A DNA stretch of 64,000 nt from an uncultured virus (IMG/VR IMGVR_UViG_3300035665_002234) (Duplodnaviria > Heunggongvirae > Uroviricota > Caudoviricetes). The stretch is from IMG/VR virus record IMGVR_UViG_3300035665_002234. The stretch is one strand, 5' to 3'. A program made the translations under genes and the position numbers. Position 1 is the stretch's first letter. Each line of letters starts with the position of its first letter. The notes under the pieces are model-generated. The model was not told the origin of the DNA and made no database searches. It worked only from the letters and a program-made list of their open reading frames with translations. Below are positions 1 through 64,000 of the stretch, in pieces.

Positions 1-1042
1 ATGTTCCTGATGAACCACTTGTTCCACTTTCTCCTGAAGAACCTGAAGTTCCTGATGAACCACTTGTTCCGCTTTCTCCACTTGAACCTGAAGTTCCTGA
101 TGAACCACTTGTTCCGCTTTCTCCTGATGAACCACTTGTTCCACTTTCTCCTGAAGAACCTGATGTTCCACTTGAACCTGAAGTTCCTGATGAACCACTT
201 GTTCCGCTTTCTCCTGAAGAACCACTTGTTCCACTTTCTCCTGAAGAACCTGATGTTCCTGAAGAACCACTTGTTCCACTTTCTCCTGAAGAACCTGAAG
301 TTCCTGATGAACCATTTGTTCCACTTTCTCCTGAAGAACCTGATGTTCCTGAAGAACCACTTGTTCCACTTTCTCCACTTGAACCTGATGTTCCTGATGA
401 ACCACTTGTTCCGCTTTCTCCACTTGAACCTGACGTTCCACTAGTTCCTGATGAACCTGAAGAACCATCAACACCACTTATACCTGAACTACCTGAAGTT
501 CCTGATGAACCACTTGTTCCGCTTTCTCCTGAAGAACCTGAAGTTCCTGATGAACCACTTGTTCCGCTTTCTCCACTTGAACCTGATGTTCCTGATGAAC
601 CGCTTGTTCCACTTTCTCCACTTGAACCTGATGTTCCTGATGAACCACTTGTTCCGCTTTCTCCACTTGAACCTGATGTTCCTGATGAACCGCTTGTTCC
701 ACTTTCTCCACTTGAACCTGAAGTTCCTGAAGAACCACTTGTTCCGCTCTCCCCTGATGAACCGCTTGTACCACTTGAACCCGATGTTCCTGAACTACCT
801 GACGTACCGTCTGTACCGCTTGAACCCGATGTTCCCGAACTACCTGATGTACCATCTGTACCGCTTGAACCCGATGTTCCCGAACTACCTGATGTACCAT
901 CTGTACCGCTTGAACCCGATGTTCCACTTGAACCTGAAGACCCGTCTACACCACTAATACCTGAAGTACCACTAGTTCCCGATGAACCACTTGAACCATC
1001 AACACCGCTAATACCTGATGTTCCAGATGTTCCAGTACTACC
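1..1042 (-). repeat. Degenerate 9-bp-period tandem repeat encoding about 115 Gly-X-Ser/Asp triplets
   Basis: Recurring units such as gaaccacttgttcc and cctgatgttcctga; a 45-bp higher-order unit repeats about 3 times near 770-925. Confidence 0.95.
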
Positions 1043-1900
1043 AGTAATAGTTACCGTAATGTTTCCACTACCATCATTAACAACGGTTGCACCGCTAAAT
1101 GTCATACCTGTGACATTGGCTACTGTTGTCGTACCATCACTAACACTAAGTGGACTACCTCCACCACCTGATGTGAATCCTGAAACATTTACTGAAGAAC
1201 CATCACTATTATTTAAGGTAAGTGTACCTGTTCCACTATCGTATGTTCCACCTGTTACCGTACCTGTAAATCCTGTGATTGTAACTGTCCCACCAGTGTT
1301 GTTATATAAATCTAATGTAGTAGTACCTGAATTGTACGTACCACCTGTAATCTGAATATCAGTACCATAGAATACTCTCCAACGAGCATTTTCTCTCGTA
1401 TCATTATACCCTTCAATTGTTGACGCAGTCCATGCGTTAATAAAATCTTTACCGGCTTGAGAACGACTATTAACCGTTGTTGAATAGTCAGTTACTGTTT
1501 TTGCAGAATTTCCTGTAAGTCCCGATAAAGAATCCCATAAAAATTCATAATTAGGTATTACGTATTGATAAACAGTATCAGTTTCTTGGACATAAACTTG
1601 CATACCCAATCTTCTTCTACCTGAAGATATATTATCGGAATTTAAACTTATACCATCTGGCGAAAATGATGTTCCCGTCCCTTTTGTAAAATTAATTGGG
1701 ATTGTATTTGCCGACAATTGTATATTTGAAGGGTATGTTGTTGCAGTTAATATAAGTTCTAAATCCCTTAAATAATAAACCTCCATATAACCCCCAATAG
1801 TTAATACCGAAAAATTAGTACCAAATGTCGAGGTTCTTGCAACACTTTCACTACCACTTAATTGTGCTGATGATAAAGGGTTTTTATATTCAAATGCCAT
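1..1900 (-). CDS. Collagen-like (Gly-X-Ser)n fibre protein, 3' end runs off the window
   Basis: Not in the ORF track. ATG at 1900 reads MAFEYKNPLSSAQLSG...RRLGMQVYVQETDTVYQ...; the frame is open wherever translated and becomes GSS/GTS/GES/GTD triplets from about 1042 to the window edge. Confidence 0.85.
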   Translation of the reverse strand, partial: MAFEYKNPLSSAQLSGSESVARTSTFGTNFSVLTIGGYMEVYYLRDLELILTATTYPSNIQLSANTIPINFTKGTGTSFSPDGISLNSDNISSGRRRLGMQVYVQETDTVYQYVIPNYEFLWDSLSGLTGNSAKTVTDYSTTVNSRSQAGKDFINAWTASTIEGYNDTRENARWRVFYGTDIQITGGTYNSGTTTLDLYNNTGGTVTITGFTGTVTGGTYDSGTGTLTLNNSDGSSVNVSGFTSGGGGSPLSVSDGTTTVANVTGMTFSGATVVNDGSGNITVTITGSTGTSGTSGISGVDGSSGSSGTSGTSGISGVDGSSGSSGTSGSSGTDGTSGSSGTSGSSGTDGTSGSSGTSGSSGTDGTSGSSGTSGSSGTSGSSGESGTSGSSGTSGSSGESGTSGSSGTSGSSGESGTSGSSGTSGSSGESGTSGSSGTSGSSGESGTSGSSGTSGSSGESGTSGSSGTSGSSGISGVDGSSGSSGTSGTSGSSGESGTSGSSGTSGSSGESGTSGSSGTSGSSGESGTNGSSGTSGSSGESGTSGSSGTSGSSGESGTSGSSGESGTSGSSGTSGSSGTSGSSGESGTSGSSGESGTSGSSGTSGSSGESGTSGSSGTSGSSGESGTSGSSGT

Positions 1901-1931: not shown

Positions 1932-3257
1932 TTAAGATTTAGTATCCCCCTTAATCCATAAAGTCGCACCTAATGGTGGTGTTGTTGGTACAAAATAAAG
2001 TTCATTCATCCACAATATTCTATAAACTCCCGCAGGAATAACACATCCACCAGGCACTGTCACATTTATTGACGCATTTCCTGCGTCAGGTATACCATTA
2101 TCAATGATTCCAACCGAACAAGCAGCTCCTGTACCAACATCTAATGTCATATTGTTCATGGTACCTCCCACACCATTCAATGGTACCCAAACAGTATAAA
2201 CATATTGTTCTGTAGGATTAACCATTGTTGTTGTAATACCAATACTACCAAATGTGTATTGATTTTGAGAACAACCTTGTGAATCAACCCCTGTACCTGA
2301 AGCCTGTCTGATTGAATTTTTAATTGTACCAACATTGGTTATAAAATTACCACTTGAACCTGACCATCCAGGATATTGAGCATAGATTGCCATGTCAGCA
2401 GCATATGTTGCCCCACCTGCGGGTCCACTACTATTATTAGTAAATCCATTGTAGTTACCACCAGCGTTACTTGTCCATAAACCTATATCACCTTGTGATG
2501 TTGAATCTTGTGGTTCAGGGAAAATGTATGCACTAAATGGAACATTAGTCGGTGTTGGTGTTTGTGTTAATGTTGGTGTATTAGTTGGTGTTTCTGTATT
2601 AGTTGGTGTAGGTGTTGCAGTATTACTTGCCGTATTAGTCGGTGTTTGAGTATTAGTTGGTGTTTGGGTTGGTGTTGCAGTGTTAGTTGGTGTATTTGTT
2701 GGTGTTACAGTTGGTGTTTTAGTATTTGTAGGTGTTTGAGTATTTGTAGGTGTTTGTGTTATAGTGTTAGTTGGTGTTACAGTTGGTGTTTGAGTATTAG
2801 TTGGTGTAACACTTGGTGTAGGCGTTGTAGTATTAGTTGGTGTTTGTGTTTGAGTATTAGTAGGTGTATTAGTATTTGTTGGTGTTACACTCGGTGTCTG
2901 AGTGTTAGTTGGTGTTATTGTTGGTGTAGGACTTGGTGTTGTGGTAACTCCAGTCATTGGGTCAGTAGGAGTTGGTGTTGGTGTAACTGTTGGTGTTGGT
3001 GTTGGTGTACATCCCGCACCTGAATCTGATAACGTTAATACAACACCATAAATCATTTCGGTCCTTGTAACTCCAGTATATACAGCAGTAGTTCCTGTAG
3101 AACCAACATAAATATCAAATGGACCAACAGCATTGTTAATACCATCAAACCTAACAATAATGTTCTGATTACAACCTGTAATGGTGTATTGATTAGTTAC
3201 CGCATTAAGACATCCACTAGCCTCATTAACTACGATAATATCATAAATTTGCCCCAT
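1932..3257 (-). CDS. Putative virion fibre/decoration protein with long Thr-Pro-Asn mucin-like linker
   Basis: 441 aa ORF with about 150 aa of TPTNT/TPTPT repeats between two beta-rich domains; TATTTAT motif upstream. Confidence 0.75.
2548..3010 (-). repeat. Pro/Thr low-complexity coding repeat (TPTNTQTPT...)
   Basis: Recurrent gttggtgt and tattagttggtg units. Confidence 0.9.
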
Positions 3258-3651: not shown

Positions 3652-6531
3652 TTAACTCACACAATTAATATCATATTGGATTATTAGGTCAATTACAATT
3701 TGTTGATTTGCCAATCCACCTTCTGTAGATATTGTTACCACACTTGTTGTAGTATCTATCGTAACACTACTAACACCGGGTATTGATAATAAAATTGTTT
3801 CAACCGCATCGTACCATTGTTGATTGGTTGGAATATCTAATAATGTTGTACCCGTATAAAAAGAATCTGTATATGTCACTCCACTAACCTCTACTTGAGC
3901 AACAAAAGTTGCTGCACTTAATAAACAATTGGTGTGTCCAGATATAATATCATAATAACCTTCATTTAACATTTGAAGAATACCTCTCTCTGTTCCCGAA
4001 GTATATTGAAATTCTTTTTCACACATTGTGTAAATTTGATATGTTGATTCAATTGCCGTACAACTTATAATAGTACTCCTTGTTTGAACACATCCATTAT
4101 CATCAACAATTGTTAAACTGTAAGTTCCACCCGTAAGACCTGTTACCGTTATATTTTGTGGATTACCACTAATATTATTGGACCAAGTAAATGTAAAAGG
4201 TGGTGTACCTGAACTAATTAATGCCGTTATTGTACCACCTGAACCAGTTCCACAACTTGTTGGATATAAAGAATATTGTAATGGTGTACCGTATGATACG
4301 GTAACATTTCCTGTTTGAACACAACCTGTTGTGTCAGTCACAGTATAACCATAGGTACCAGTTCCCAATCCATCAAAGGTTGCCGCACTAAAACTAGTGT
4401 TAACCGACTGACCATTACTTAATTGGTAGGTATATGGTGCCGTACCACCTGTTGATAATGTGAGTGTAACAGTACCGTTATTTAAATTACAAGTTGAACC
4501 TGAACTTGATGTTGTTACAGTGTAAAGATTTTGGGCAATAATAGTTATTTCTTGTTGATATAAACAACTAGTACTATCAGAAACATAAACAGTATAAGTT
4601 CCACTTTCTAAATTAACAAAATCATAAGCAGTTGAGTTTGAAACTGCATTGACTACTGATGAATCGGGATAAACTAAAGTATATGTGTATGGAATTTCAC
4701 CACCGTCTAAAGTAATTGATATTTTACCATCACTACTACTACATGTAGAGTTAGTTTGAGTAACAGATAAACTATTAAAAGTGTTTGGCGTTTGTAAAAC
4801 TGTTGAAAATGTTGCTTTACATAAAGCAGCATCAGTAATATCCACCGAGAATGGTCCTGAAGATAATCCCGAAAAAACATATGATGTTGCATAGGTAATT
4901 GCAACTGTACCATTTGAACCCGAATAATAGTAAGGTCCAGTTCCTCCAGTTATAGTTAACGTAAGTGAACCATCGGCAACAAAACAAGAAGGTGTAACCG
5001 CAGTCCATGAACCTAACCCAATACTTGGGACAAAATCTACTGTGGCCACTTGTGATAATACACAACCATCCGATGAAGTTACTGTAACCCCATAACCGCC
5101 AGCAGTAAGACCCGTAATAGTATCACCTGTAACACCATTAGACCATTCATAAGTAAACGGAGCATTACCCGTAACTCCTGTAACATAAACTTTTCCTGTT
5201 GGACTAGCACATTGAGTATCATTTACAATATAAAATCCGTAATCAAGCGTATTAGATGAATAGATTATACACGTTTCAGAAGTTCCTGAACAACCAGCAC
5301 AATCAACAGCTGTTACTGAATAAGTTCCAGCGGATAAATTATTAAAAGTTCCAATATTTGTTGAACTTGTTTGTGAATCAACAAATCCATAAGCGGAATA
5401 TAAATAATAATTGATAACATCACAACTTGATGTTGCGGTTACCGTCAATGAACCATTATCTAAACCACATGTTGTTGCAACTTCAGTTTGAAATCCAATT
5501 GTCAACCCCGAACCAATAACAACGTTAATATAAAATTCGTTATTTGTAGGTGCTGTAGAGTCATTTGCTCTAACATAGTAAGTTCCCGCAGGTAAATTTG
5601 TTTTGTAATCACCCGTACCTAAGTTTGGATAATACCAATCAAAAGTATATGGTGGTGTTCCCCCACTAGCCGTAATCAATGCCGAACCCAACCCTGTTTC
5701 ACAAGCACCCGTAACTGTTAGGGTATATGCAAATGTATTACCATTATTATATGGTGATGATGATGGTGTTGGAGTTGGTGGTAGTTCCGTTGGCGTAATT
5801 GTTGGTGTTGGCGTAATTGTTGGTGTTGGCGTAATTGTTGGTGTTGGCGTAATTGTTGGTGTTGGTGTTGGAGTTGGTGGTAGTTCCGTTGGCGTAATTG
5901 TTGGTGTTGGCGTAATTGTTGGTGTTGGTGTTGGAGTTGGTGGTAGTTCCGTTGGCGTAATTGTTGGTGTTGGCGTAATTGTTGGTGTTGGTGTTGGAGT
6001 TGTTGGGCAAGGCGAATATGTTTCACAATCGGGACAATCTGAAAATGTTGATAGATAACTAAAAACACAATTATTGTCGGTATATATTGTTGACCCTGTG
6101 TATCCAGTAATTACTGTTGCACAACCATTAAAAGTTCCACCAGTTCCAACATAGTTAAGGAACATTGTTGTACCATTAACATAATCGGAACCTAATTCAA
6201 TATCACCACGTCTGAAACTAAATGTTGAACCATCGCAACATGCCGAAAATGTGTAAAACAAATTGTATGGGTACATATTGGTGTTAACTGACGGACATCC
6301 TGTTGACGAATTACAAGCACCACCAGCATTTGTCGCGTCAGGTGATAGGTATGTTGAACTCGGAATACCACCAGCACTTGAAATATAAGCATAACACGCA
6401 CCATCACCGCTATAAATAACATAGCTTTGGTTTACAGTCCATCCACTCGCATCATCAATAGTAAATGTTTTATAAATTGTATCTCCTGTATAATTGAAAC
6501 AATTTTGAAATAATTTATCTACTAACGCCAT
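3652..6531 (-). CDS. Fibre/adhesin-like protein: Cys-rich N-terminus, PT linker, tandem SprB-like repeats, C-terminal domain shared with the neighbouring gene
   Basis: 959 aa; repeated (S/T)GGTxPYTYxW...GxYxVTVTDxxGC motifs typical of SprB repeats. Confidence 0.75.
5762..6005 (-). repeat. Near-perfect 63-bp and 18-bp tandem repeats encoding [21 protein letters not shown]
   Basis: Identical units gttggcgtaattgttggt and ggagttggtggtagttcc recur. Confidence 0.95.
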
Positions 6532-10424: not shown

Positions 10425-10467
10425 TTTTTTATTTTATCTATTAGTAATAAATACCATTTTTATTTTT

Positions 10468-17000: not shown

Positions 17001-19043
17001 CCATGGTGGTAATTTATCAATAAAATCAAAATCATTATTATCATTTTTTCTAATTGGGACTCTAACACTTTCAGTATTAAATCCTTTACCCGCAAAAACT
17101 TCTTGGTGTTCTGTTACATTAGATTGATTTGGATTCCAATTGTCATACACAAAAAAATCGGCATTTAATGATAATGAATTTTGTGCCGCGGCTTCTTGAA
17201 TTGCTGTTAACTCATCATTGTCTTGTGGTACAGGTTCTTGTTTACATTCACAAAACTGACATTCAGGATATGTTAAATTTGGTAATGTTATTTTACTAAA
17301 TGGATTTGTTAATTCTTTAAAAAGATTTTGAAAATTGTATGGTTTTGGGCAATTTATTTGATTATCAGCACCACGCAGTTTATTAATCGCTTTACAAATA
17401 ACTGAAACAATTGTCAAAATTGTTCCAAACACAACTTTTAATAATACACTTATAATTGGCCATATTAATGCTAACACATGGACAATAGGTAATAAAATCA
17501 TAATTGTTAATGATGCTGTATATAACAAATACGTCACTAAGGTTGGTATTATACTAAAATTTTGTCTTAACCCATCTGTGGCCGGAAATCTATTATTTTC
17601 ACTTTCACATTCAGTATTAGTAATTTCTTTAATACCAATAAACTTTTTTCTATTAGTACCTTTTTTATATTCATCAATTAATTGTGATACCGTATAGACT
17701 TTATTATATTGAAACTCATAGAATGTATCTTTACAATCAATAGCATCTTGTGCGTTAGTATATCCACTCCAATCTAAACCAAAATAATAAGAACCTATTA
17801 ACTCTTGATAACCCACATTACTGTCAGGTTTATAAATTGGGTCATTGTATGGGTCAGCAGTACCCCAACCATATTCTTTAATATTTGGTACTAAATAATA
17901 TGCTCGTCTAACTTCATCCTTTGCAAAGTTGGCTGGTTGTGAATATTTTATTTTAAATCTATATTTTCCTCTAGTTGGTATACCAATTTTTGGGTCAGGA
18001 CTTAAAACTTGTTCACCAAATTCATTAGTGGTTACATAATCCAAATTCATTGGAACTTCTAATAACCATGTTCCATCACTATCAATTGTTTTTGCCCCTT
18101 GTGGAAATTGAGCTTGTTCTAATATAGGTCTACCTTGGGTGTCTTGAAAAATGGTTTGTCTGACACCAATGATTTCTCCAGGTGCGGTTTCTAATGAACA
18201 AAGACTTCCTAAATCTTGTGGTGGTTTACAATTCTTTGGTAAAGCATAATCTTTACTATTTGTAATCAAAGAACCCATAAACATGGCTGTTGGAGATATA
18301 TTAATACCTGATTGACGTAAATCAAAATCAGTTCTTGTTATATCAATTTGACAAATTTCTGGTTGTCCCCAAAATGGTTGTACATTTACACTTTGGTTTA
18401 AAGTTACGATTTGTGGTAGTTCAAATAAGTTAGTTGAACTTTTAAAGTTCACACCGTCAAATTGGTCTGCGGTTGCTCTACCCATTCTGATTAAATCTTG
18501 TGGTGATAATGAGAATGGTCCGATGTCAGACAAATCCATATCCATAACAACAGTATACGTTCCGATTGGAACACCCATTATCATATAGTCACCACTACCA
18601 TTTGATTTAACAGTGAATTTATAATACTTGTCATAAACCTCAATCAACGCTGGGTTTGTTAAAATATCATTTTTACTTGGGAATGTTCCTGTTGGGATAT
18701 GACCTGTATGTTGTTGCTCATAAGGTAATAGATTATATCTATATCCATCAGCGTTTACATCATTAAGACTTCGGTAAGGATATAAATCATAAATTATTTC
18801 ATCATTTAAATCTTCATCTGTTATTGGAATAAAAACAGAAACTCTTACATTTGGAACACCGTATCCACCATTGGCAAGAACACGACCTACAATTACACCA
18901 TAGTCTGCACACATTCTTGTGTAGACATCTTCACTTCTGACTTTTAAAGAAAGTATCTCTAACTGGTCAAAATCTTGTTCTAATTCTATATTGACTTGTC
19001 TATCAACACCAACTTCTGTACGTATTCTATAAGTTTTGGACAT
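14004..19043 (-). CDS. Large virion protein with N-terminal carboxypeptidase-regulatory-like beta sandwich and an internal hydrophobic segment
   Basis: 1679 aa; GVIVGRV...GVPNVRVSV...SGDYMIMGVPIGTYTV motif; about 55 aa hydrophobic stretch near aa 498-553. Confidence 0.6.
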   Translation of the reverse strand: MSKTYRIRTEVGVDRQVNIELEQDFDQLEILSLKVRSEDVYTRMCADYGVIVGRVLANGGYGVPNVRVSVFIPITDEDLNDEIIYDLYPYRSLNDVNADGYRYNLLPYEQQHTGHIPTGTFPSKNDILTNPALIEVYDKYYKFTVKSNGSGDYMIMGVPIGTYTVVMDMDLSDIGPFSLSPQDLIRMGRATADQFDGVNFKSSTNLFELPQIVTLNQSVNVQPFWGQPEICQIDITRTDFDLRQSGINISPTAMFMGSLITNSKDYALPKNCKPPQDLGSLCSLETAPGEIIGVRQTIFQDTQGRPILEQAQFPQGAKTIDSDGTWLLEVPMNLDYVTTNEFGEQVLSPDPKIGIPTRGKYRFKIKYSQPANFAKDEVRRAYYLVPNIKEYGWGTADPYNDPIYKPDSNVGYQELIGSYYFGLDWSGYTNAQDAIDCKDTFYEFQYNKVYTVSQLIDEYKKGTNRKKFIGIKEITNTECESENNRFPATDGLRQNFSIIPTLVTYLLYTASLTIMILLPIVHVLALIWPIISVLLKVVFGTILTIVSVICKAINKLRGADNQINCPKPYNFQNLFKELTNPFSKITLPNLTYPECQFCECKQEPVPQDNDELTAIQEAAAQNSLSLNADFFVYDNWNPNQSNVTEHQEVFAGKGFNTESVRVPIRKNDNNDFDFIDKLPPWEIINKYNLKSKYFDTDPYAGSNRIKVQVEPKYNSNTNHFDNIMAVFVDPDVQNTFISGQLLSFQELTKSTDPNTSGATSTPETGITGTTNVGKSVTMTFANPTSPNLSNSTVTYNFPTVPNETKSYKFPTDIEYFQVITGVTYNDFVSQNAAYAKGTTTCNYLNYTVTNQTKNPITINYTDYNGTSQTATIGIVVDQDTNTTYGATEDICACENSLSSTKKFSIDNINSCSVPAPAGSVLPGNLLSQLYQKIELFRNDGKDGHDFYDSYIGQWIGGEISLVFMVRGVDPHSGRKSIKYDLSRIFGYSSYGRKVISGDFYMNVPVQQGLKTVRNAELTNNLQSNSNGYLYFNSFQYTAGTQYSAYTTTLQNYYSSLDMNQVDDYPINNDNPDSLLTSDMVYNGGSGQLVANSSTEGYIQGEYIEGGSFIWAEKAKKIKKDNNGNDNNDTRPWLYFAPSWARYAPAKMVVYKDKMVMRSDRLPVGTIFDGSANNYFAWQASNALPYTFVDDNGTSNTQLVVPSFDFSDPTENPDLVTGATFNAIANSFTCNGMVDLSCYQGDGRNFTALPATNECNTNTKKGDKVVVKGCYILVNKPIGTLFGRNNDYSLIIEWIGRLRLMIAVCQGTFSHTFVNSWINGTLFAFPFQNAVRFNAKNEPIVRTVVLNKAFYNFCADTIVYEPQSNNFYYRSSPWDGQNFIGQYPPSGLFNSPVNDRNLLYPTTIMDLGPKFIWSKDVNKSPNYFGYQMDRFNATSWNNVSDLLQLFIISRISNSNLLKSTKTGLDTSISAFFSRPQLRVDGDYAQMLQINSQYGIVPYTADNYFDDPATTTDNVVYVSVDNQKNSVFGIFYSGYTEERDLISPRRIDRTFTGNTLIADYLGTKSQEVPFYRWSNTAYIDGQPSIFGNEENNWYTEGNAYKEKYQNLDRMLNPMFIGGNNQIQNRKGYIYQTNSLGQYSQSPALGNNNETITSAPWYFYFGLKKGSSAMDKFTKLYIKSEE

Positions 19044-19117
19044 TCCTTTTACTTTCTATCATAAATAGTTTATACACTATTTTATAATAGTAGTTAAAGA
19101 ATGAATAAAATAAATTA

Positions 19118-20959
19118 TCAAGAGAAGTTTGTTGTCTGGTAATTTTTAACTCTTACCGTAATATCTTTAGTTGGGAAATGGACTTGGTAAATCTGATTTG
19201 GTTCTGCAAATATTGTGTTGTCCACTAAAGAAATTTTCTTTGTTGCCGCATCTGAATAAGGCATTGCTGTTTGTGCCGAACTATATTGACCACCAACTTT
19301 GTTAAATACTGAAATGTCAGTAACACTTAATACACCATTTTCTGCTTGTAATATTCTATTCAATTCAGATAATACAATATTTTCACCCAAACCTCTTACA
19401 GTAGGACTAAAGAATGTGGTGACTCTATCCACAATGTTTGAAATAACAACTCCTTGGTTTTGTGTAGCATCTAAAACAACTGAAATGTCTAACGCCAAAT
19501 CAATTACTTCTGCACTTCCAATAACAACATAATCATTAATCATTCTATAATTTGACAAATATTCCGCCAAATTTTTCTTCATAGTTTGTGAAACTTCAGA
19601 TGTTAAATTACCTGTAGCATCATATGATAATACATTGATATTAATTTTATTATTGTTTTCAGTAATAGATACTTTGGCAGGTGCTCCAAATTGACCCGGC
19701 ATATTTCTTATAATCGCTTCGTAGTCATGTATTGTAACCGCTCTGTTTTGTGCTGCAAAGTTAAACGTTACATAATTTCTAACTTCTTCAGTTGATGGAT
19801 ATCCTGCTCCACCAATCGCGGCCGTTACGTTATTACAAGCTAATGAATTAATTACAGAATTATTTATAATATCAGAAGGTCCATTAACAAAGAAATCAAC
19901 AGAACCAATTTGTGTAATAACATTAACACCTAAGTTTGTACCTTGTCCACCACCAATTCTATATTGTATAAACATTGTTGTATTTGCTTGTGGAGCATTA
20001 CCCAATGACATTGAATTGTTTTGGTATCTTTGAATCTTTAACGGTACATCAAGTGCTGTAAACTCTCTAAGTTGGTCTTCAGCAGTATTTGTTCCTCCAC
20101 CAAAAGTAAGTTTTATAAAACCTTCAGGTGTGTATTCTGTAATAAATCTATCTTGTGTTTGTATATATCTTCCAACTTTAATTGCTGGGTCATCTGATGG
20201 TTTTGTAGGGTCCTCAATAAAAACTCTATCTTCAGCAAGTGCCGATACTTCATACCATCTACCTTGCACACCTAAAAATTCTTGTGCCGTTGGTACGTTA
20301 GAATAAGATGTACCATCTCTTTGAATTATTGATGTGACTCCTAAAACATTTTTTTCAGGTAAGAAAAATTCAAAGAAAGGTCTAACATCATTTGGAGTTA
20401 TAACTCTTTTGAATACCTTTGTAATACCATTTACTACAGTTTCTCTTTTAGTGATTGTGTAGTTTATTAAGTTGTTGTTGGCATCAAAATTTGGTATCTT
20501 TAATCTATTTGGTATACCATCAGCATTAAATGGTGATGCGAAATCAATATCATATATTGTTTCAAATACTTGACCTGAACCTTGAACTTGACTTCCACGT
20601 CTTAATGTTCCCAAATATCTTTCATCTTCTTTATCACCAAATGCCGGAACTGTAATTGAAAAATCAACCAAAGCTACAGATGGTCTTTGACCAGGAATTT
20701 TTAATCCATACGTTCTTGCAATGTTATAGATTGATGAACGTTGTTGTGCATATTGAAGAACTGTTTCTTGAATACTTCTATCTATATGATAATGTAAATT
20801 GTCGGCTACGGCTGCGTTTAAATCCAAGAATACAGAAAAAACTGAAGCATCATTGAAGTTATCAATCAATTCTGGATAATAAGTTTTTGTGTAATTAATT
20901 AATTCCTGACGAATTGCTTGGAAATCCCTTACGGTATATGATATTCTTCTTTGAGCCAT
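19118..20959 (-). CDS. Baseplate wedge protein, T4 gp6/baseplate J-like
   Basis: RDFQAIRQELINY..., AQQRSSIYNIARTYG, FGGG, AQNRAVTIHDY motifs; adjacent to the gp25-like gene. Confidence 0.85.
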   Translation of the reverse strand: MAQRRISYTVRDFQAIRQELINYTKTYYPELIDNFNDASVFSVFLDLNAAVADNLHYHIDRSIQETVLQYAQQRSSIYNIARTYGLKIPGQRPSVALVDFSITVPAFGDKEDERYLGTLRRGSQVQGSGQVFETIYDIDFASPFNADGIPNRLKIPNFDANNNLINYTITKRETVVNGITKVFKRVITPNDVRPFFEFFLPEKNVLGVTSIIQRDGTSYSNVPTAQEFLGVQGRWYEVSALAEDRVFIEDPTKPSDDPAIKVGRYIQTQDRFITEYTPEGFIKLTFGGGTNTAEDQLREFTALDVPLKIQRYQNNSMSLGNAPQANTTMFIQYRIGGGQGTNLGVNVITQIGSVDFFVNGPSDIINNSVINSLACNNVTAAIGGAGYPSTEEVRNYVTFNFAAQNRAVTIHDYEAIIRNMPGQFGAPAKVSITENNNKININVLSYDATGNLTSEVSQTMKKNLAEYLSNYRMINDYVVIGSAEVIDLALDISVVLDATQNQGVVISNIVDRVTTFFSPTVRGLGENIVLSELNRILQAENGVLSVTDISVFNKVGGQYSSAQTAMPYSDAATKKISLVDNTIFAEPNQIYQVHFPTKDITVRVKNYQTTNFS

Positions 20960-52515: not shown

Positions 52516-54060
52516 ATGAAGAATCTTAAAAATAGGATTGAAGTAATTGAAGAAGATTTACAAAAAAAAGAAATTAAAAGACAACAAGAACAAAAAGTAC
52601 GAAAAGTTGTCACAGAAGCCAAAAACATTAAGATAGAAAGATTACCCTATTCTTATTCAGCACTAAAACAATTTATTGACCCAGAAACCATGAGTGTTCA
52701 TTACAACAAACACTACAAAGGTTATGTTGATAAATTAAATGGAGCATTAAAAGATGATGAAGATTTAACTTTAGAAGAAATTGTTAAAACAATTGACAGT
52801 TTCAACAAGTTCATCAGAAATAATGCGGGTGGGGCTTACAACCACCAATTGTTTTGGAAAATGTTAACTCCAAAAACAACAAAACCAGGTCCGATAACAC
52901 TCAAAAAAATTAATCAAAGTTTTTCATCTTTATCTGACTTTAAAAAGAAATTTGATGGTCAAGCAAAAGATAGATTTGGTTCAGGTTGGTGTTGGTTAGT
53001 TCTTACAAAACGAGGAACATTAAAGATTATGACAACCGCCAACCAAGACAATCCACTTATGGATGTTGTTGACCAAGGCGGATATCCAATTTTAGGGTTA
53101 GATGTTTGGGAACACGCATATTATCTAAGATATAGAAATAGAAGAGATGAATATATTAAAAACTTTTGGAAAGTTGTGAATTGGGATTATGTAGAATCTG
53201 AACTTTCAAGAAAGTTAGACAAAACGGTAAAAGAATCTACAACCGCAAAAGAATTTTTAACTGAAGCCGTTAAGAGTGAACCTTGTTCTACTCAAGACAA
53301 AATGGCCTCAAAATTATTATTTAATACAAACCGTGATGTTCTTAATCTATACAAAAATGCAATAATGCAAATTTTAAAAGAAACATTTGCTGACAGATTT
53401 TACAACAAAGATGAATATGCTAAAGGACAAATGTCGGGTGTGTATGATTTGGAAGGTGAAGGTAGGTCTGTTATCAATTATTTGAATACAAATTACAGTG
53501 CGTTTTGTGTCTTGAAAAAAGATTTAAACAAATATCTTACAAAAATAGGTGAAGAACCAATTATTTTTTCAGATAAAACACAAAGAGAACAAGTCAATGA
53601 AATGGCAAGAATGTTAAAAACATTAAACAAAGTTAAGTTTAGAGTTTTTTCATTAGAGTCAGAAACATTTAAAACAATTATGAGTGTGATGGGGGTAACT
53701 TCAGACAAAGGTAATAAAACTGAAGATGCTGTTGTTGAAAAACTTAAAAAACAATTTGGTGATGAAAACGTAACTCGTATTGGTGAACTTGGAAACAAAG
53801 AAGATATGATGACGGGTGTGGATGTTAAGATTATGGTTGATGGTGTTGAAAAAACTGCACAGGTAAAACCATTCAGTCATATAACAAGAAGTGAAGACAT
53901 GTATAAAGTTGATGGTACCGCAAATGTTAAAAGATATCAAACAAATTGGATGATTTTTATGAAACGTTTGGATGACATGGTAATCTTTGATAACTCAAAC
54001 ACAAAAATTATTGATGGTGTTTATTATTTCCCAATTGATGCCAAGTTGTATCAATTGTAA
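52516..54060 (+). CDS. Fe/Mn superoxide dismutase fused to a C-terminal PD-(D/E)xK-like domain
   Basis: LPYSYSAL, HYNKHY, NNAGGAYNH, FGSGW, NQDNP, DVWEHAYY; C-terminal GxxxE...D..GVD...QVK. Confidence 0.85.
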   Translation: MKNLKNRIEVIEEDLQKKEIKRQQEQKVRKVVTEAKNIKIERLPYSYSALKQFIDPETMSVHYNKHYKGYVDKLNGALKDDEDLTLEEIVKTIDSFNKFIRNNAGGAYNHQLFWKMLTPKTTKPGPITLKKINQSFSSLSDFKKKFDGQAKDRFGSGWCWLVLTKRGTLKIMTTANQDNPLMDVVDQGGYPILGLDVWEHAYYLRYRNRRDEYIKNFWKVVNWDYVESELSRKLDKTVKESTTAKEFLTEAVKSEPCSTQDKMASKLLFNTNRDVLNLYKNAIMQILKETFADRFYNKDEYAKGQMSGVYDLEGEGRSVINYLNTNYSAFCVLKKDLNKYLTKIGEEPIIFSDKTQREQVNEMARMLKTLNKVKFRVFSLESETFKTIMSVMGVTSDKGNKTEDAVVEKLKKQFGDENVTRIGELGNKEDMMTGVDVKIMVDGVEKTAQVKPFSHITRSEDMYKVDGTANVKRYQTNWMIFMKRLDDMVIFDNSNTKIIDGVYYFPIDAKLYQL

Positions 54061-58322: not shown

Positions 58323-58351
58323 AGTATAGGTATTGGATTTAACCTCGTCAA
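58323..58351 (-). promoter_or_regulatory. Sigma70-type promoter of the DNA polymerase gene
   Basis: TTGACG-N17-TATACT; same -35 hexamer as the SSB promoter. Confidence 0.8.
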
Positions 58352-58749
58352 CAACAAGGACTATCTATAATGAAACTTTCTTGGACATTGATGTATAACT
58401 CATCTCTTAGAGGTAAAATAAGATTTCCTTCAATACCACCCAAAAGACCGTTATTATATTTAATCAAAAATTGTCCAACATAACGACCAATAGTATTTGT
58501 ATCACGAGCAGTGAATTTAAAATATACGTAATATTCGGGTAATGCGTTTGGGTCATCACCAATTACTTCAGTAATGTATGCGGGTTTTGAAACAATCTTT
58601 GGTATTCCCGTTGCTTCATTTATCATAGAAAAGAAAATTGACGCACTACCTAAAGAATCCATAAAAGATTGGTATTCACTTCTACCATCTCTAACCACTT
58701 GCATTTTTAAAAGTGGTAATGTCGCATTTTTCTTAATATTAAAATCCAT
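58348..58749 (-). CDS. Small structural protein (BppU N-terminal-like)
   Basis: FNIKKNATLP...YFKFTARDTNTIGRYVGQF; TATTTAT 5 nt upstream. Confidence 0.5.
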   Translation of the reverse strand: MDFNIKKNATLPLLKMQVVRDGRSEYQSFMDSLGSASIFFSMINEATGIPKIVSKPAYITEVIGDDPNALPEYYVYFKFTARDTNTIGRYVGQFLIKYNNGLLGGIEGNLILPLRDELYINVQESFIIDSPCC

Positions 58750-58765
58750 TACATATAAATACTCA

Positions 58766-60442
58766 TTAAGATTCTTTTCTTAATGAACCATCATAAAAAT
58801 CAAACCTATCATGTTCAGTTGGTGTCATCAATAACAATGCGGGTTTAATATTTCCCTTAATTGTTTCTTGGAACATGTAACTCATCCAAGTTTGTTCAAA
58901 CGGTCTTGACCATGTTGTTTCTAAGAACATTTTTTTGTTTCCATGTCGTGTAACTATCTGTGGCCAATTACAATAGTAAATTTCACCATCAACAAAAGGA
59001 ATTCCTTTGTGATTTCTAATGTTGTTGTATTTTGTCTTTGGTGCGTTTGGGTCTTGACCTTGAACGGGTAATGTTGGTTTTTCTGGCCAATGTTTTACCC
59101 TAAAATCTTGCGGTACATTATACCATGACCATTGTATTCCATTATCACCAAAAAACTCACTATAGTTCATTTTGATGAAGTCATAATGGTATTTTTTTGT
59201 AATCTCAATTATGTTTTTATACAAATTGTCAACGTATCGGTTAAATCCATTTCTACAAACCTCACCTTTGTTTGGGTAAAAGAACATATCATCTTCAAAA
59301 AAGAAATAAAAATCAAATTCATTTTCTTCAGCATGTTCTGCAATCCATTGTCTACCACCACAAATACCTAAATTATCTTTTTTAATATGTTCAAAACCAT
59401 ATTTTTCACAAAGTTCCGAGTATTTCTCGGTAGTTGATAAATCTGATGAATTATCTAATAAGAACTTTTTTGGTTTGTTAATAAAATCTATATCATAAAC
59501 TTCCATAGAATTCATTAAAGTTTCAAATTGTTTTGGACTATTAAATGTTATAACATATAAGGCAACATTATCAGGGCTTAAATCATCATTAACAGCATCC
59601 ATTTTAAATTTACTTTGTTTTTTTAAATCGTCATTTTTTAAATCCTCAAAAAATTTTCCAAATAAACCATTTGACTCAATTTCAAAATAATCAATCAAAT
59701 CAGCATGTTTATAACACATTATTGAAAAAATTGATTCTTCAGTTCCCATTAAATTTTGTGACAATGTGGATGTTAAAAGATTATAATAAATTCCATTTAT
59801 ATCACTAATACTACTCTTTGGTCCACCAAAAAAACCACCACGAGCAACCATGTCTACCTTTGTCTGTGATATCTTATTAATTTCGTCAAAATTAAACCCG
59901 TGAATTTCGTTATTTGCCTCATAAGGGAAACAAACAAAACTAAATTTATTAATATACTTTGGAAGTTTTTCTAAGACCTTATCATGTGTAAAATAACCTG
60001 GATGTACAGTATTTGCCAATCCAGCATCAATCCAAAACATATATTCAGAATCAAAATTATCAAAAATTTTGGCATCATGTAACAAAAACATTTTAGACAT
60101 AACTAATGGATTATACCATTCAAGTTTTGCCTGTGTTGAGTCTGCCAACCATCCAGCTTGATTATACCAATCAGGATTTGTTCTAATTTGTTGGATTTTA
60201 TCGTATGGAACAGTTTGTTTAAACCAATCTTTATCTCTAACAATAAATTGGGTGTTTGACCTATCTCTTCTTTCCCAAACAAAAGATTCCAATTCTTGTT
60301 CACCAAAAATTATTATATTATTATCAACCTTAAGAAGATGGTCAAATTTTTCTAAATAATGTTCAAAACTACGTGACCATCCTTCAGTTAATGAATCACG
60401 ATTAATATTCCATAAACCTGTAACTAATGTTATTTTACTCAT
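58766..60442 (-). CDS. Two-domain glycosyltransferase-like protein (HtrL/YibB-like plus GT-A/GT2-like)
   Basis: TLVTGLWNINR, FWIDAG, GGFFGG, GTEE; second domain DNSSD, DNLGICGGR, FFEDD. Confidence 0.7.
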   Translation of the reverse strand: MSKITLVTGLWNINRDSLTEGWSRSFEHYLEKFDHLLKVDNNIIIFGEQELESFVWERRDRSNTQFIVRDKDWFKQTVPYDKIQQIRTNPDWYNQAGWLADSTQAKLEWYNPLVMSKMFLLHDAKIFDNFDSEYMFWIDAGLANTVHPGYFTHDKVLEKLPKYINKFSFVCFPYEANNEIHGFNFDEINKISQTKVDMVARGGFFGGPKSSISDINGIYYNLLTSTLSQNLMGTEESIFSIMCYKHADLIDYFEIESNGLFGKFFEDLKNDDLKKQSKFKMDAVNDDLSPDNVALYVITFNSPKQFETLMNSMEVYDIDFINKPKKFLLDNSSDLSTTEKYSELCEKYGFEHIKKDNLGICGGRQWIAEHAEENEFDFYFFFEDDMFFYPNKGEVCRNGFNRYVDNLYKNIIEITKKYHYDFIKMNYSEFFGDNGIQWSWYNVPQDFRVKHWPEKPTLPVQGQDPNAPKTKYNNIRNHKGIPFVDGEIYYCNWPQIVTRHGNKKMFLETTWSRPFEQTWMSYMFQETIKGNIKPALLLMTPTEHDRFDFYDGSLRKES

Positions 60443-61005
60443 TCTGTATCCCTAACTTTATAAATAATTTTATCAATAAATTCATATTCAAATATTTTTG
60501 ATATGTCAGAATAAAATATCCCATCTCCAAAAATATCCTCATGAAATAACGGTAAATTTTTGGTGTTTGGTATTACACCAACACATTTACCAATGTTGCC
60601 GACTTCAAAATGTTTTGAAGCCCAATTAACGGTACCACCCCATTTATGTTTAAAAATGTATAATTTTTTTTCTGTAACAGTATTTCTAATATATTCAAAT
60701 GCATCAGGAACATACCTATCATCATCATCGGCAAACATTATAAAATCACCGTCTAAGGTATTCATATGTCTATTTAACAATGGATGTCCAAAATTACCTT
60801 CAGGACCGTTTAAATTTTTAATATGATTTAATTTACATTTAAAATTAAAAGTAGATAACACCCCCTCAACAAAGTCGTGATTATTATCCGATACAATGGT
60901 AAAATAATCATTTTCATTTAATTGATTAACAAAACTATCAATTAAACGACCTAACGATTCTCGTCCTAAAGATGTACAAAGGATGTGAAAAGAAAAATTA
61001 TTCAT
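60439..61005 (-). CDS. GT2-like glycosyltransferase
   Basis: SLGRESL, IVSD, GDFIMFADDDD (DxD), GDG. Confidence 0.7.
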   Translation of the reverse strand: MNNFSFHILCTSLGRESLGRLIDSFVNQLNENDYFTIVSDNNHDFVEGVLSTFNFKCKLNHIKNLNGPEGNFGHPLLNRHMNTLDGDFIMFADDDDRYVPDAFEYIRNTVTEKKLYIFKHKWGGTVNWASKHFEVGNIGKCVGVIPNTKNLPLFHEDIFGDGIFYSDISKIFEYEFIDKIIYKVRDTE

Positions 61006-61840
61006 AACATTTTTCTAAGATATATTTTTCAGTGTCTAATTTGTCCATAATTTCTAAAATACCTCTTTGGAAATCATTCCAATCTCCAAAATTAAAGAAC
61101 TTGGTGTTATTTCTATGTGTTAAAATGGCCAAAACCTCTTGTTCACTGATTAAACCACTATAAGTTTTTAAATATAAATCAAAAATATTTAGATAATCGG
61201 ATAATACTTTTTGTATATTTTCTTTATTTCCACCAAATAATGCACCAGGTATTAATTTAAAGTCTGTGTTATATATCGCATTCATTCTATCTCGTAACTC
61301 ATAATTAATTTGGATTGCTTCACCTCTTAAAGATATAAAACCATACTCATCAATTTTTTCATTAATTTTATCCAAAAATAATTTTGAGTGGGCCAAGACA
61401 TTCATATAATCTCTCCAACCATCGTGACAACTAGTTCCAAACAATCCCGCATCTAACCAAACAACATTTTTATTTTCTTCACTTTCAGACAATAAAAATT
61501 TAATTTTGTTTAAAATTACCTCAATATAGTTTTTAACACAATATATTCTATCATATATTTCACCTTCATTGAATTTTGTTTCTCTGATTGGATTAATAGT
61601 GTTTAAGTAATATTCAGAATCTAATTCTTCAATTTTTATAACAACATTTTGTTGGTTAAAAACATCACCTAATGAAAATGTATCATATGTGTGTTTATCT
61701 GTATAAATAACATATTCATATTCATCAAATATGATGTTTTGTATTGTTTGAGCCAACAACGGGAATGATTTATACCTCATTCCACCTCTACCGTCTTCAT
61801 ATCTTAAATCGTAGATTGAAGTTATTATTTTTAATACCAT
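60998..61840 (-). CDS. HtrL/YibB-like putative glycosyltransferase
   Basis: IITSIYD, VWLDAGL, GALFGG, SEQ; parallels the N-domain of 58766..60442. Confidence 0.6.
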   Translation of the reverse strand: MVLKIITSIYDLRYEDGRGGMRYKSFPLLAQTIQNIIFDEYEYVIYTDKHTYDTFSLGDVFNQQNVVIKIEELDSEYYLNTINPIRETKFNEGEIYDRIYCVKNYIEVILNKIKFLLSESEENKNVVWLDAGLFGTSCHDGWRDYMNVLAHSKLFLDKINEKIDEYGFISLRGEAIQINYELRDRMNAIYNTDFKLIPGALFGGNKENIQKVLSDYLNIFDLYLKTYSGLISEQEVLAILTHRNNTKFFNFGDWNDFQRGILEIMDKLDTEKYILEKCYE

Positions 61841-62553
61841 TTATTATGTTTTGGAATCAATAAGTTTATGCCTTGACTGGAATTATTTTTTAATTCAATA
61901 CCGTTATAAAATGCTGAAAAACACATTTCATCAATATTACCCGCTGGCACGTTACGTAAATTCTCATCGTATTTGATTTTAATACACTCATCCCAAGTAT
62001 TTAAAAAATCATTAAATTTATTTGTTTCAATATCTAAAAATTGAACACAATCTTCAGGCATGTAAAAATTTTCATTACTATATAAAACATTGAATTTATT
62101 TTCGTAGTGTTTGAATCTTTTACCTAACTCACTATTACTTTTTTCTTCATTTTCAAATAGATATGTTACTTGACCAGATATACTATTAGGTAAAAATAGT
62201 TTTAATATATTTTCATGTGTAAATAAACTTTCATTAGCCACAACGTCAGTATCACATAATATTATTTTACTAAAACCATTTTCTAATGCAAATCTAACCG
62301 AATACCTTTTAACTGAAAAATCAAAATCATAATAATTTGTATTGTAGGTTTGATATTGTTCATTATACTCCCTAATGTCTTTAACCTTAACCCAACTTTC
62401 TTTTGTGATTTTATCGGGATTGTCGGTAACAACAAAAATTGTTGGTTTATCATTAAGTTCTTTAAAAGAATCTATTAATCTGTTTGTTTGTTCATAATAC
62501 CTTTCACCATAACAAAAAGTGGTGATGGCATAATTATTATCTAAATTTTCCAT
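61831..62553 (-). CDS. GT-A fold putative glycosyltransferase
   Basis: TFCYGERY, VVTDNP, LCDTD (DxD); position within the operon. Confidence 0.55.
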   Translation of the reverse strand: MENLDNNYAITTFCYGERYYEQTNRLIDSFKELNDKPTIFVVTDNPDKITKESWVKVKDIREYNEQYQTYNTNYYDFDFSVKRYSVRFALENGFSKIILCDTDVVANESLFTHENILKLFLPNSISGQVTYLFENEEKSNSELGKRFKHYENKFNVLYSNENFYMPEDCVQFLDIETNKFNDFLNTWDECIKIKYDENLRNVPAGNIDEMCFSAFYNGIELKNNSSQGINLLIPKHNKWY

Positions 62554-62554
62554 A

Positions 62555-63802
62555 TTATAAATTTCCTGTTATTCTTTCACACCAATCTTTAGATACTGAG
62601 TGTGGCCAAACAACCCAATACTTTGGTTTATGTTCTGTTTGGAATTCTCTCCATACTTTACAGTAACCATCAGGGTCATTCATCATTCTATCAATTTCTG
62701 CCTTATCAGCGTCTTTTCTGTTCAGTGTTTCATCATTTTCACCGTGGAAGGCAACCACCCAAAAATCATAATCTTTTTCAGGTACTTGTGAGAAACCAAT
62801 ATCAATACAATGTTTAAATACTTGAGCAAAGTTTTTCTTCCACTCTTCTTCAGATTCAAAGTTGTATGGATTTGGTGGATAATTCTTATCTAAGGTATGT
62901 TGTTGGACAGCTCTTTTTTCAAATAAAAGACCTGAATACTTTTCATAATCTCTTAATGTCCTAACAGGTCCAAATCCATAAGGTCCGTCATGACCTTCTT
63001 GTTTTTCACCATCCATACCAAATAATTTTCTATTGGTAAAATGTGAATGACTGTTTTTATTACCCCAATCTTTGTCATCATCCCATTGTTTTGTTCTACC
63101 TTTACGAGTATATTCGTGCCAAATCAAAACTTTATGTGGGTGGAATAAATCATAACCCCAAGTATAAGCACGAGCGGCAATTGATATTTCTTCACCGTGG
63201 AAATAGTATTCAGGGTTGTGTTGTACTTCTTTTGAGAACTGACCTAATGTAAAACAGTAGTGAGCTGAATAGAAACGAGATGTAACAGGTTCTGTTAAGC
63301 TCTGCCAACCTGGAATTGTTTCAGGTAGGAAGAATACCGCACCTTCAGGAATAAATCTGTCAAACGCCATTCTCCATGGTTCTTGCATACGCCCTGATGG
63401 GTCATTGTCGGGGTCAAAAGATGATACATATCCTGTAAGTAATGGTTTTTCATGACCTTTCTTTTGAAGTTGTTTAATCATCTTAATCATTTCATCATCC
63501 CAATTGGGTGCGAATCTCATGTGTGAATCAATTTGAAGTGTATATTCTTCACCTTGATATAGTTGTTGAACTTGGTTTCTTGCCCAACAAACACCTTTTG
63601 ATTCTTGATAAGGAATGTTAAGGATTCTAAATCTTTTATCATTTTCGTACTCTGACATGTCATCAAACCCGTCTTCAGGATGAAATTGTCTTGCAATACC
63701 AATTCTTAAATTTTTAGGTCTTTTAGCATTTTCTATCATACTTTTGATAGTTGCTATAAGTTGGGGGTCACGATAAGCGGCAATTTGAACAAATATTTTC
63801 AT
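62555..63802 (-). CDS. GT60/Gnt1-like polypeptide GlcNAc-transferase
   Basis: IFVQIAAYRD, SKGVCWAR, QIDSHMRF (DxH), GEE, RAYTWGYDLFHP, YGFGPVRTL match the Skp1 Gnt1/GlcNAc family pattern. Confidence 0.85.
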   Translation of the reverse strand: MKIFVQIAAYRDPQLIATIKSMIENAKRPKNLRIGIARQFHPEDGFDDMSEYENDKRFRILNIPYQESKGVCWARNQVQQLYQGEEYTLQIDSHMRFAPNWDDEMIKMIKQLQKKGHEKPLLTGYVSSFDPDNDPSGRMQEPWRMAFDRFIPEGAVFFLPETIPGWQSLTEPVTSRFYSAHYCFTLGQFSKEVQHNPEYYFHGEEISIAARAYTWGYDLFHPHKVLIWHEYTRKGRTKQWDDDKDWGNKNSHSHFTNRKLFGMDGEKQEGHDGPYGFGPVRTLRDYEKYSGLLFEKRAVQQHTLDKNYPPNPYNFESEEEWKKNFAQVFKHCIDIGFSQVPEKDYDFWVVAFHGENDETLNRKDADKAEIDRMMNDPDGYCKVWREFQTEHKPKYWVVWPHSVSKDWCERITGNL

Positions 63803-63875: not shown

Positions 63876-64000
63876 TTAACTTATTTTAAGATATCCGTAA
63901 TTTACAGTGATATTTGAACCTGTGTTATTTTGTATTCCAAACACAAATGTATTTGTTGGGGTACTCACACTAGGACTTGAGGTTGATATTGCACCTGCGG
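63876..64000 (-). CDS. C-terminal end of a gene starting beyond the window
   Basis: Reads ...AGAISTSSPSVSTPTNTFVFGIQNNTGSNITVNYGYLKIS-stop; TAA at 63876-63878. Confidence 0.6.
   Translation of the reverse strand, partial: AGAISTSSPSVSTPTNTFVFGIQNNTGSNITVNYGYLKIS

Follow-up and report, generated by a model that had tools for sequence, protein, structure and literature searches.

A predicted GT60 glycosyltransferase heading a swappable phage gene cassette, with threonine/proline-rich stalk proteins as candidate acceptors

What would a tailed phage decorate with a whole set of glycosyltransferases (GTs) of its own? The question is raised by positions 58,766 to 63,802 of a 64,000-nucleotide stretch of viral DNA (hereafter, the window), where five minus-strand open reading frames (ORFs) follow one another with intergenic gaps of, in order, +1, –10, –8 and –4 nt. 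The window is the first part of a 116,422-base linear record of an uncultured jumbo phage (IMG/VR IMGVR_UViG_3300035665_002234), 38% complete, which encodes T4-like capsid, portal, terminase, sheath, tube and baseplate proteins, as well as PolB. The original prediction, made from the sequence alone, was that a GT60 enzyme primes Thr and Ser residues in the stalks of fiber-like proteins, and that HtrL-like and GT-A enzymes extend the glycan. Our results make it probable that an N-acetylhexosamine (HexNAc) is placed in the cytoplasm on Thr residues in the Thr-Pro (TP) stalks of proteins that the phage itself encodes and that are probably virion-associated, and that the glycan is then extended by a serotype-like cassette.

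The GT60-like enzyme and a variable cassette

The first gene of the block codes for a 415-aa protein that matched PF11397 with E 2.9e-65 (221.5 bits, against a curated Pfam cutoff of 21). A catalytic GT-A domain (residues ~1–300) is followed by a C-terminal beta domain (~325–415), and the motifs IFVQIAAYRD, QIDSH and HGEE are found at residues 3, 90 and 202, respectively. Among 34 homologues, D92 and H94 were invariant, while G203, E204, E205 and H229 were at least 90% conserved; the DxH, the GxE and the distal His presumably correspond to the metal and Gal/GalNAc-T motifs of the polypeptide N-acetylgalactosaminyltransferases (ppGalNAc-Ts). With a structural model of the protein (pLDDT 91.7), the top ranks of a Foldseek search were occupied by ppGalNAc-Ts. 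Comparison by VIA likewise put ppGalNAc-Ts first: 8v9q gave Z 21.4 and rmsd 3.6 over 278 aligned residues, followed by Toxoplasma T3 (Z 19.9) and by the next other family (Z 17.7); the VIA match covers residues 1–310 well. Searches of PDB sequences with the gene and with both alignments returned no match. The Pfam score, a GT-A fold nearest to the GT27 ppGalNAc-Ts and the conserved motifs all place the protein in GT60, and its sequence and model indicate that it is likely a polypeptide HexNAc-transferase-like enzyme. Protist GT60s place alpha-N-acetylglucosamine (GlcNAc) on the Thr and Ser residues of mucins (PMC8724618, PMC3188802).

The last gene of the block encodes a 558-aa protein, whose N-terminal half belongs to HtrL_YibB (54.8 bits, Pfam cutoff 24.1). 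Its model (pLDDT 88.6) matched the two-domain GT-A enzymes LH3, mimivirus R699, chondroitin polymerase and LARGE1, with low whole-chain TM-scores (0.22–0.33), which indicates two GT-A domains and no specific function; it is the likely elongating enzyme. The C-terminal half gave weak matches to TAGT (E 0.003, below the cutoff) and to the PHROG of beta-glucosyl-HMC alpha-glucosyltransferase (E 4.5e-6). Family and structure assignment had been suggested as a check for all five ORFs: PF11397, HtrL_YibB and, for the 188-aa ORF, GT2 were found above the Pfam cutoffs, and the 280-aa protein proved HtrL-like (hhalign with the 558-aa family, 93.6%, E 2e-7; atlas HtrL_YibB, 0.97). The 240-aa ORF had no Pfam match and is a GT-A lead only, its atlas neighbors being GT8, GT77 and GT6 at 0.95. 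The tight packing, the overlaps and the motifs were as originally described, and the block codes for six likely GT-A domains, assigned with varying confidence.

We scanned IMG/VR with the GT60 gene and examined the best 80 of 196 relatives. The 558-aa gene lay downstream of GT60 in 72 of the 80 loci, with 1 to 13 genes between the two and 33 different combinations; the remaining eight loci either stop at a contig end (four) or have a longer cassette (four). One of the long cassettes belongs to G001, a relative of 294,914 bases (98% complete) with a median identity of 96% to our record across 82 ORFs in common. In G001, whose GT60 and last gene are respectively 96.6% and 78.5% identical to those of the window, 21 genes separate the cassette ends, and none of them matched the three middle genes of the window at E 1e-3. 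The block is a variable cassette between two conserved end genes, not a fixed operon. This variability, and the occurrence of the two-gene core in bacterial chromosomes described below, go beyond what had been predicted.

Pfam searches with representatives of 97 of the 101 clusters of cassette genes (four truncated clusters were excluded) revealed, among the middle genes of the relatives, GTs of types GT10, GT11, GT25, GT2, GT7, GT34 and GT61, PLOD-like and RXYLT1-like, together with FkbM and other methyltransferases, sulfo-, acetyl- and carbamoyltransferases, DegT aminotransferases and sugar-nucleotide enzymes; many clusters had no Pfam match. No family of membrane initiators, flippases or polymerases was found among the clusters scanned, and none of 394 cassette proteins showed a membrane-like segment (19-residue hydropathy of at least 1.8).

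Threonine/proline stalks as candidate acceptors

The three repeat-rich Ser/Thr proteins that had been noted in the window are real, with G-x-S/T or PT tracts. On the whole contig, five proteins carry PT tracts, with 466 Thr/Ser in total, and the largest of them (1305 aa) is encoded two genes upstream of GT60. In 61 of the 80 loci (39 of the 48 where the full 5 kb was available), the 5 kb upstream of GT60 contained the end of a TPTxTPT ORF; in 21 of 64 loci, the homologue of the 133-aa gene that follows the cassette had a TP tract fused to it. The TP genes of the contig sit amid baseplate, neck and head genes, three of the five carry the TATTTAT element common to the sheath, tube and portal genes, and their products show no signal-like hydrophobic stretch at the N-terminus; we call these proteins probably virion-associated. 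The motif D-S/T-A/I/L/M/T/V, which we take to be the host-type O-glycosylation motif of Bacteroidota, was absent from all PT tracts of the contig.

TATTTAT likely marks late genes. Genome-wide, 25 of its 67 sites were found no more than 60 nt ahead of the start of an ORF on the same strand, as opposed to 6 in the opposite orientation; among distinct upstream sequences, it preceded the 1305-aa PT gene in 12/12, a neck gene in 18/18, the 133-aa gene in 44/48 and PolB in 0/36. That a TATTTAT-preceded gene directly follows the block was confirmed; its description as structural is conjectural, the 133-aa product having no match in Pfam or PHROG.

The association between GT60 and the stalks extends to unrelated jumbo phages. 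GT60 matched 4 of 50,697 INPHARED records (the Xanthomonas phage XacN1, Xoo-sp13, and the Stenotrophomonas phages CM1 and RAS14), and the same four were the only ones to match the whole 558-aa gene, seven others matching its N-terminal half alone. The order of the two cassette ends is the same in all four, and a carbamoyltransferase gene separates them; none matched the PolB of the window, yet TPTxTPT stalks were present in each. In XacN1, ORF334 is the GT60 orthologue (47%) and ORF330 the orthologue of the 558-aa gene (41%). The XacN1 paper reports at least two virion glycoproteins, with the GTs ORF328 and ORF334 suggested as their makers, and the legend of its Fig. S4 describes Schiff staining of virion bands (PMC5852040). 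Both cassette ends were also found in four more records without the PolB of the window, and every GT60-positive phage genome examined for TPTxTPT had the motif. In a set of 30 records, TPTxTPT was present in 19/19 PF11397-positive and 0/11 negative ones, 16 of the 19 positives having been chosen via GT60 and three via the capsid gene; the negatives were 10 records among the nearest PolB/capsid relatives and one HtrL-only match. The scan with the major capsid protein (MCP) yielded mostly short contigs, with three further long records usable. In the reverse test, a TP-pattern scan of 1/64 parts of IMG/VR gave 168 loci and 49 contigs of at least 50 kb, 47 of them searchable. PF11397 was found in 20 of these 47, vs 1 of 23 collagen-pattern controls (p 0.0008); for the control, 50 of 130 loci were submitted and 44 records searched, 23 of them of at least 50 kb.

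The (G-x-S)n repeat, originally put forward as a co-acceptor, was rejected as unsupported, as it does not track with GT60: we found it in 5/13 GT60-positive and 1/11 GT60-negative records, while it was absent from both near-complete relatives and from three cultured phages examined. Of the expected co-occurrence with repeat proteins, the PT part is supported and the GxS part is not.

In bacterial genomes, we examined 79 loci of 383 relatives of GT60. A homologue of the 558-aa gene was present in 28 of the 79 by BLAST, or 32 by hidden Markov model if partial matches are counted, and GT60 was fused to the 558-aa type in 4 of 120 long homologues. A strict TPTxTPT ORF occurred in 14 of the 79 loci (22 with Ser allowed), where about 0.5 would be expected by chance (1.08 Mb), at a background rate taken from five genomes chosen for such a neighbor (14 distinct sites elsewhere in 29 Mb); three of these 14 loci resemble misbinned viral contigs by gene content, and six come from related Betaproteobacteria and are not independent. 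The share of TPTxTPT lying beside GT60 was 5/5 in Jiulongibacter, 1/1 in a Saprospiraceae genome, 25/31 in a verrucomicrobium, 54/64 in Ralstonia sp. 25C and 4/9 in a gemmatimonad. The neighbors themselves vary: they may be proteins with type IX secretion system (T9SS) tails, PqqD-domain proteins bearing TP tails, or VgrG ending in a (TP)n tail; what they have in common is the repeat. In a quick tree of phage and bacterial sequences, the Saprospirales nested among the clade of this phage (SH-aLRT 96–99), and the XacN1 group joined sequences linked to type VI secretion (SH-aLRT 97).

Some results weigh against stalk priming by GT60, starting with the choice of positives just described for the set of 30 records. 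In the reverse test, 14 of the 20 positives belong, by PolB, to this one clade; with the clade removed, the comparison (6/31 vs 1/23, p 0.22) is not significant. TP stalks do not require GT60, because GT60 was missing in 7 of 11 near-complete TP-pattern records, one of which had 170 motif matches. A profile search of five TP-rich, GT60-negative viruses came back empty, and the genes adjoining the stalks in such viruses had no GT match in Pfam. Among the bacterial loci, 65 of 79 lack the strict motif and 57 the loose one. The stalks could be served instead by a second GT cluster, at 71012–88475 of the record. The XacN1 paper saw no tail fibers by electron microscopy (PMC5852040), and caution is therefore needed in calling the stalk proteins fibers. 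Finally, GT60 has TATTTAT in 9 of 53 distinct upstream sequences and is without it in 44; by this element the acceptor genes look late, while late expression of the cassette is not supported.

With these reservations, the Pro/Thr arm of the original prediction is well supported, by the family and fold of the enzyme, by the order of the genes and by a co-occurrence that extends to unrelated phages and to bacteria. In the scheme we propose, GT60 would place a HexNAc on the Thr residues of TPTxTPT tracts, the sugar being probably alpha-GlcNAc and its donor the UDP-GlcNAc of the host; the two-domain HtrL/GT-A enzyme would add the next sugars, leading to a common core; and the products of the middle genes (1 to 21), whose exchange between near-identical phages is observed, would extend and cap the glycan, resulting in serotype-like variation. 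We may speculate that the product serves as stiff, protease-resistant bottle-brush spacers holding lectin- or Ig-like heads off the particle, and that a variable surface alters the binding of the particle.

Alternative acceptors

DNA, host lipopolysaccharide (LPS) and hydroxyproline are less likely acceptors than the Thr residues of TP stalks. In the hydroxyproline alternative, a prolyl hydroxylase would first modify the Pro residues of the stalks, on which GT60 would then act, like Gnt1 on Skp1. Among the related pp-alpha-GlcNAc transferases is the cytosolic enzyme that acts on Skp1 (PMC8724618), 47 of the 120 long GT60 homologues are fused to a 2-oxoglutarate (2OG)-Fe(II) oxygenase, and G001 has two such oxygenases. 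However, the C-terminal domain of the phage enzyme is missing in all 47 oxygenase-fused forms and present in 60 of the other 73. No oxygenase occurred among the scanned cassette families, and PF13640 was detected in one of five cassette-bearing genomes examined, far from GT60, in a search that a host enzyme would escape. We therefore regard modification of Pro as improbable.

Equally doubtful, in our opinion, is a reading in which the glycosylated TP proteins do not belong to the virion and are, for instance, set free when the cell lyses or stay behind in it. Their PHROG matches are to a family of unknown function, and in bacteria the proteins encoded next to GT60 are cargo for secretion, marked by T9SS tails or twin-arginine-like leaders. 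Yet the setting of the TP genes among virion genes, the TATTTAT element on three of them and the lack of signal-like N-termini all point to the particle, and XacN1 virions do stain for glycoprotein (PMC5852040).

The cassette might also remodel the host surface, altering LPS, lipooligosaccharide (LOS) or capsule so as to block superinfection. HtrL/YibB genes are known in LOS loci (PMC4172580), the middle genes resemble O-antigen tailoring enzymes, and a similar reading has been proposed for the GT clusters of cyanophages (PMC7824862). We nonetheless consider it unlikely, given that no membrane, flippase or polymerase gene was found in any cassette, that the two-gene core is common to phages of predicted Bacteroidota hosts and of Xanthomonadales, and that the head gene comes from a protein-acting family.

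Least probable is DNA hypermodification, with the GTs and the carbamoyltransferase decorating modified bases: the cassette lies two genes from PolB, and the 558-aa C-terminal half has the DNA-sugar matches mentioned above, but these weak matches fit a sugar-on-sugar enzyme equally well, no TET/JBP match was found in five genomes (in a search without a positive control), at most one thymidylate-synthase-family gene was seen and none in the 98%-complete G001, no base-hydroxymethylating family appeared in the 192 of 232 new G001 ORFs scanned (with many ORFs unannotated), XacN1 DNA was mapped with BssHII, NaeI and SpeI (PMC5852040), the core occurs in bacterial chromosomes beside secreted proteins, and the link to PolB is lost in other lineages.

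Genome setting and known systems

The coordinates of the cassette, of the candidate acceptors and of other features are collected in Table 1.

Table 1. Features of the window and of the adjoining part of the virus record
Feature	Position	Strand	Evidence or remark
Collagen-like (G-x-S/T)n protein, probably not a cassette acceptor	1..1900	-	154 Ser + 52 Thr in tract; runs off contig end
441-aa protein, PT stalk at residues 77-243 (74 Thr, 35 Pro), candidate acceptor	1932..3257	-	81 Thr/Ser in PT tract; TATTTAT 26 nt upstream
959-aa protein, PT stalk at residues 165-262, SprB repeats, candidate acceptor	3652..6531	-	41 Thr/Ser in PT tract
133-aa gene after the cassette	58348..58749	-	Preceded by TATTTAT; TP tract fused in some homologues
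TATTTAT, likely late-type promoter element	58755..58761	-	12 nt ahead of the 133-aa gene
Conserved last gene, 558 aa; one GT-A domain in the N-half (HtrL/YibB), a second in the C-half (FEDD motif)	58766..60442	-	PF09612, E 1.4e-14; model
Variable middle gene 3, 188 aa, small GT2-like enzyme	60439..61005	-	PF00535, E 1.2e-5; homologues in 4/80 loci
Variable middle gene 2, 280 aa, HtrL-like GT	60998..61840	-	hhalign and atlas; homologues in 4/80 loci
Variable middle gene 1, 240 aa, possible GT-A enzyme with D-T-D motif	61831..62553	-	Atlas lead; homologues in 5/80 loci
Conserved first gene, 415 aa, GT60/PF11397, polypeptide HexNAc-transferase-like	62555..63802	-	Pfam, conserved residues, model, fold
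164-aa gene, 3' end (runs to 64370)	63876..64000	-	
1305-aa protein, 320-residue PT tract (157 Thr/Ser), LamG domain, candidate acceptor	64422-68339 (outside window)		Upstream of the 164-aa gene
bS21	102770-102997 of record (outside window)	+	PF01165, E 1.7e-9; portal and protease genes on minus strand either side

The bS21 gene of our record lies, on the opposite strand, within the TerL-portal-protease-MCP block. G001 codes for two proteins bearing T9SS tails and, because of these, we infer a Bacteroidota host. Amid the virion genes of the window, positions 52516–54060 encode a 514-aa protein with an Fe/Mn superoxide dismutase as its N-terminal half and a long unannotated C-terminal half.

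Further glycan genes were observed in these genomes. The cluster at 71012–88475 (plus strand, outside the window) comprises GT2s, a DXD GT, methyltransferases, a GDP-mannose dehydratase, a DegT aminotransferase, FdtA and a UDP-sugar dehydrogenase. A third cluster, at about 270–292 kb of G001, contains GT4/TibC-like and GT9 enzymes, FkbM methyltransferases and a 2OG-oxygenase-GT2 fusion; it adjoins two more PT proteins, and XacN1 likewise has a GT9 near its cassette. In the near-complete virus G019 (at 9102–20000), which has 170 TPTxTPT and no GT60, genes of about 250 aa without a Pfam match stand beside the stalk gene and are perhaps another glycosylation kit.

Some bacterial GT60 loci deserve mention in their own right. 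In six loci of Burkholderiales, GT60 closes a type VI secretion block near a VgrG with a C-terminal (TP)n, which suggests a glycosylated spike tail. In four of Gemmatimonadota, the gene directly before GT60 and the 558-aa homologue encodes a PqqD domain together with an RR-bearing segment and a TP/TS tail, possibly a glycosylated leader-peptide system. The GT60s of four Saprospirales loci, 62–72% identical to the phage gene and accompanied by a 558-aa homologue, lie in divergent orientation to the gene of a T9SS-tail protein with SPTPTT repeats. In Sphingobacterium and Sediminibacterium-like genomes (four loci), GT60 adjoins genes for radical SAM enzymes and/or C39-peptidase ABC transporters, so that peptide tailoring is possible. 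Several Alphaproteobacteria/Rickettsiales encode fusions of about 2,000 aa uniting GT60, 2OG-oxygenase, GT2 and redoxin, possibly a hydroxyproline-type pathway. Two contigs filed as bacterial have phage-tail-like genes and a GT60 between PT-stalk proteins, and probably represent a further phage lineage.

A broader proposal, which we hold to be evenly poised, is that a mobile cytoplasmic mucin-type module (GT60 plus the HtrL/GT-A extender, reading TP) moves between jumbo phages and several bacterial phyla and, in an abundant freshwater clade, anchors an O-antigen-like cassette giving virion glycan "serotypes". The acceptors of related bacterial GT60s would then be T9SS cargo, leader-bearing peptides and type VI spike proteins (at their (TP)n tail), and phages may have been the source of the module in a Saprospirales branch.

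If priming of the stalks by GT60 is correct, a common group of large lake phages would be covered by a dense glycan layer that varies between strains and is built by the phages' own enzymes, the first of them of a kind so far characterized only in protists. Glycan variation would enter phage ecology, and the abundance of GTs in such genomes would be explained; the HtrL/YibB family would acquire a function, and the unexplained XacN1 virion glycoproteins a mechanism. A small, soluble polypeptide HexNAc-transferase of the bacterial cytoplasm would also be a useful tool for producing mucin-like glycoproteins.

GT60 action on protist mucins and phage-made virion glycans are each known, while no report of the two combined in a swappable cassette turned up in the literature searched, outside which lie most subscription papers and bioRxiv supplements. 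The phage enzyme resembles the protist GT60s (the Dictyostelium Golgi enzyme, the T. cruzi mucin initiators and the cytosolic Skp1 enzyme) in family match, DxH and ppGalNAc-T-like fold, and the systems are alike in their repeat-rich Thr/Pro candidate acceptors. It differs in being phage-encoded and soluble, with an additional C-terminal beta domain instead of a membrane anchor, and in its partners, an HtrL/GT-A enzyme and a swappable tailoring cassette, as known here from sequence and model.

Bacterial O-antigen and LOS outer-core loci likewise have conserved flanks, exchangeable middle genes, an HtrL/YibB member and similar tailoring enzymes; in contrast to them, the cassette lacks a lipid-carrier initiator, flippase and polymerase and is headed by a protein-acting family. 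By features rather than phylogeny, our phage resembles the bS21-encoding freshwater jumbo phages of Bacteroidetes, for which the same opposite-strand bS21 amid terminase, portal, protease and capsid genes is described (PMC9723584), with relatives of about 300 kb and T9SS-tail genes; the string "glycosyl", however, does not occur in that paper. The moraphages, compared on the same basis, have four core GT groups on their side (PMC12619734).

With XacN1, the phage shares orthologous cassette ends, TP-stalk proteins and GTs of phage origin suggested to make virion glycoproteins, although the GT family, the cassette and the acceptors are not named in the accessible part of PMC5852040, and phage lineage and host are unrelated. 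In mycobacteriophages, phage GTs modify the phage's own structural proteins (Freeman et al. 2023, as cited in PMC12619734 and PMC10877033), where the capsid and tail tube subunits carry the glycans at their C-termini. In our phage, on the other hand, the predicted acceptors are dense TP stalks, the putative initiator is a GT60, and the tailoring genes vary among close relatives.

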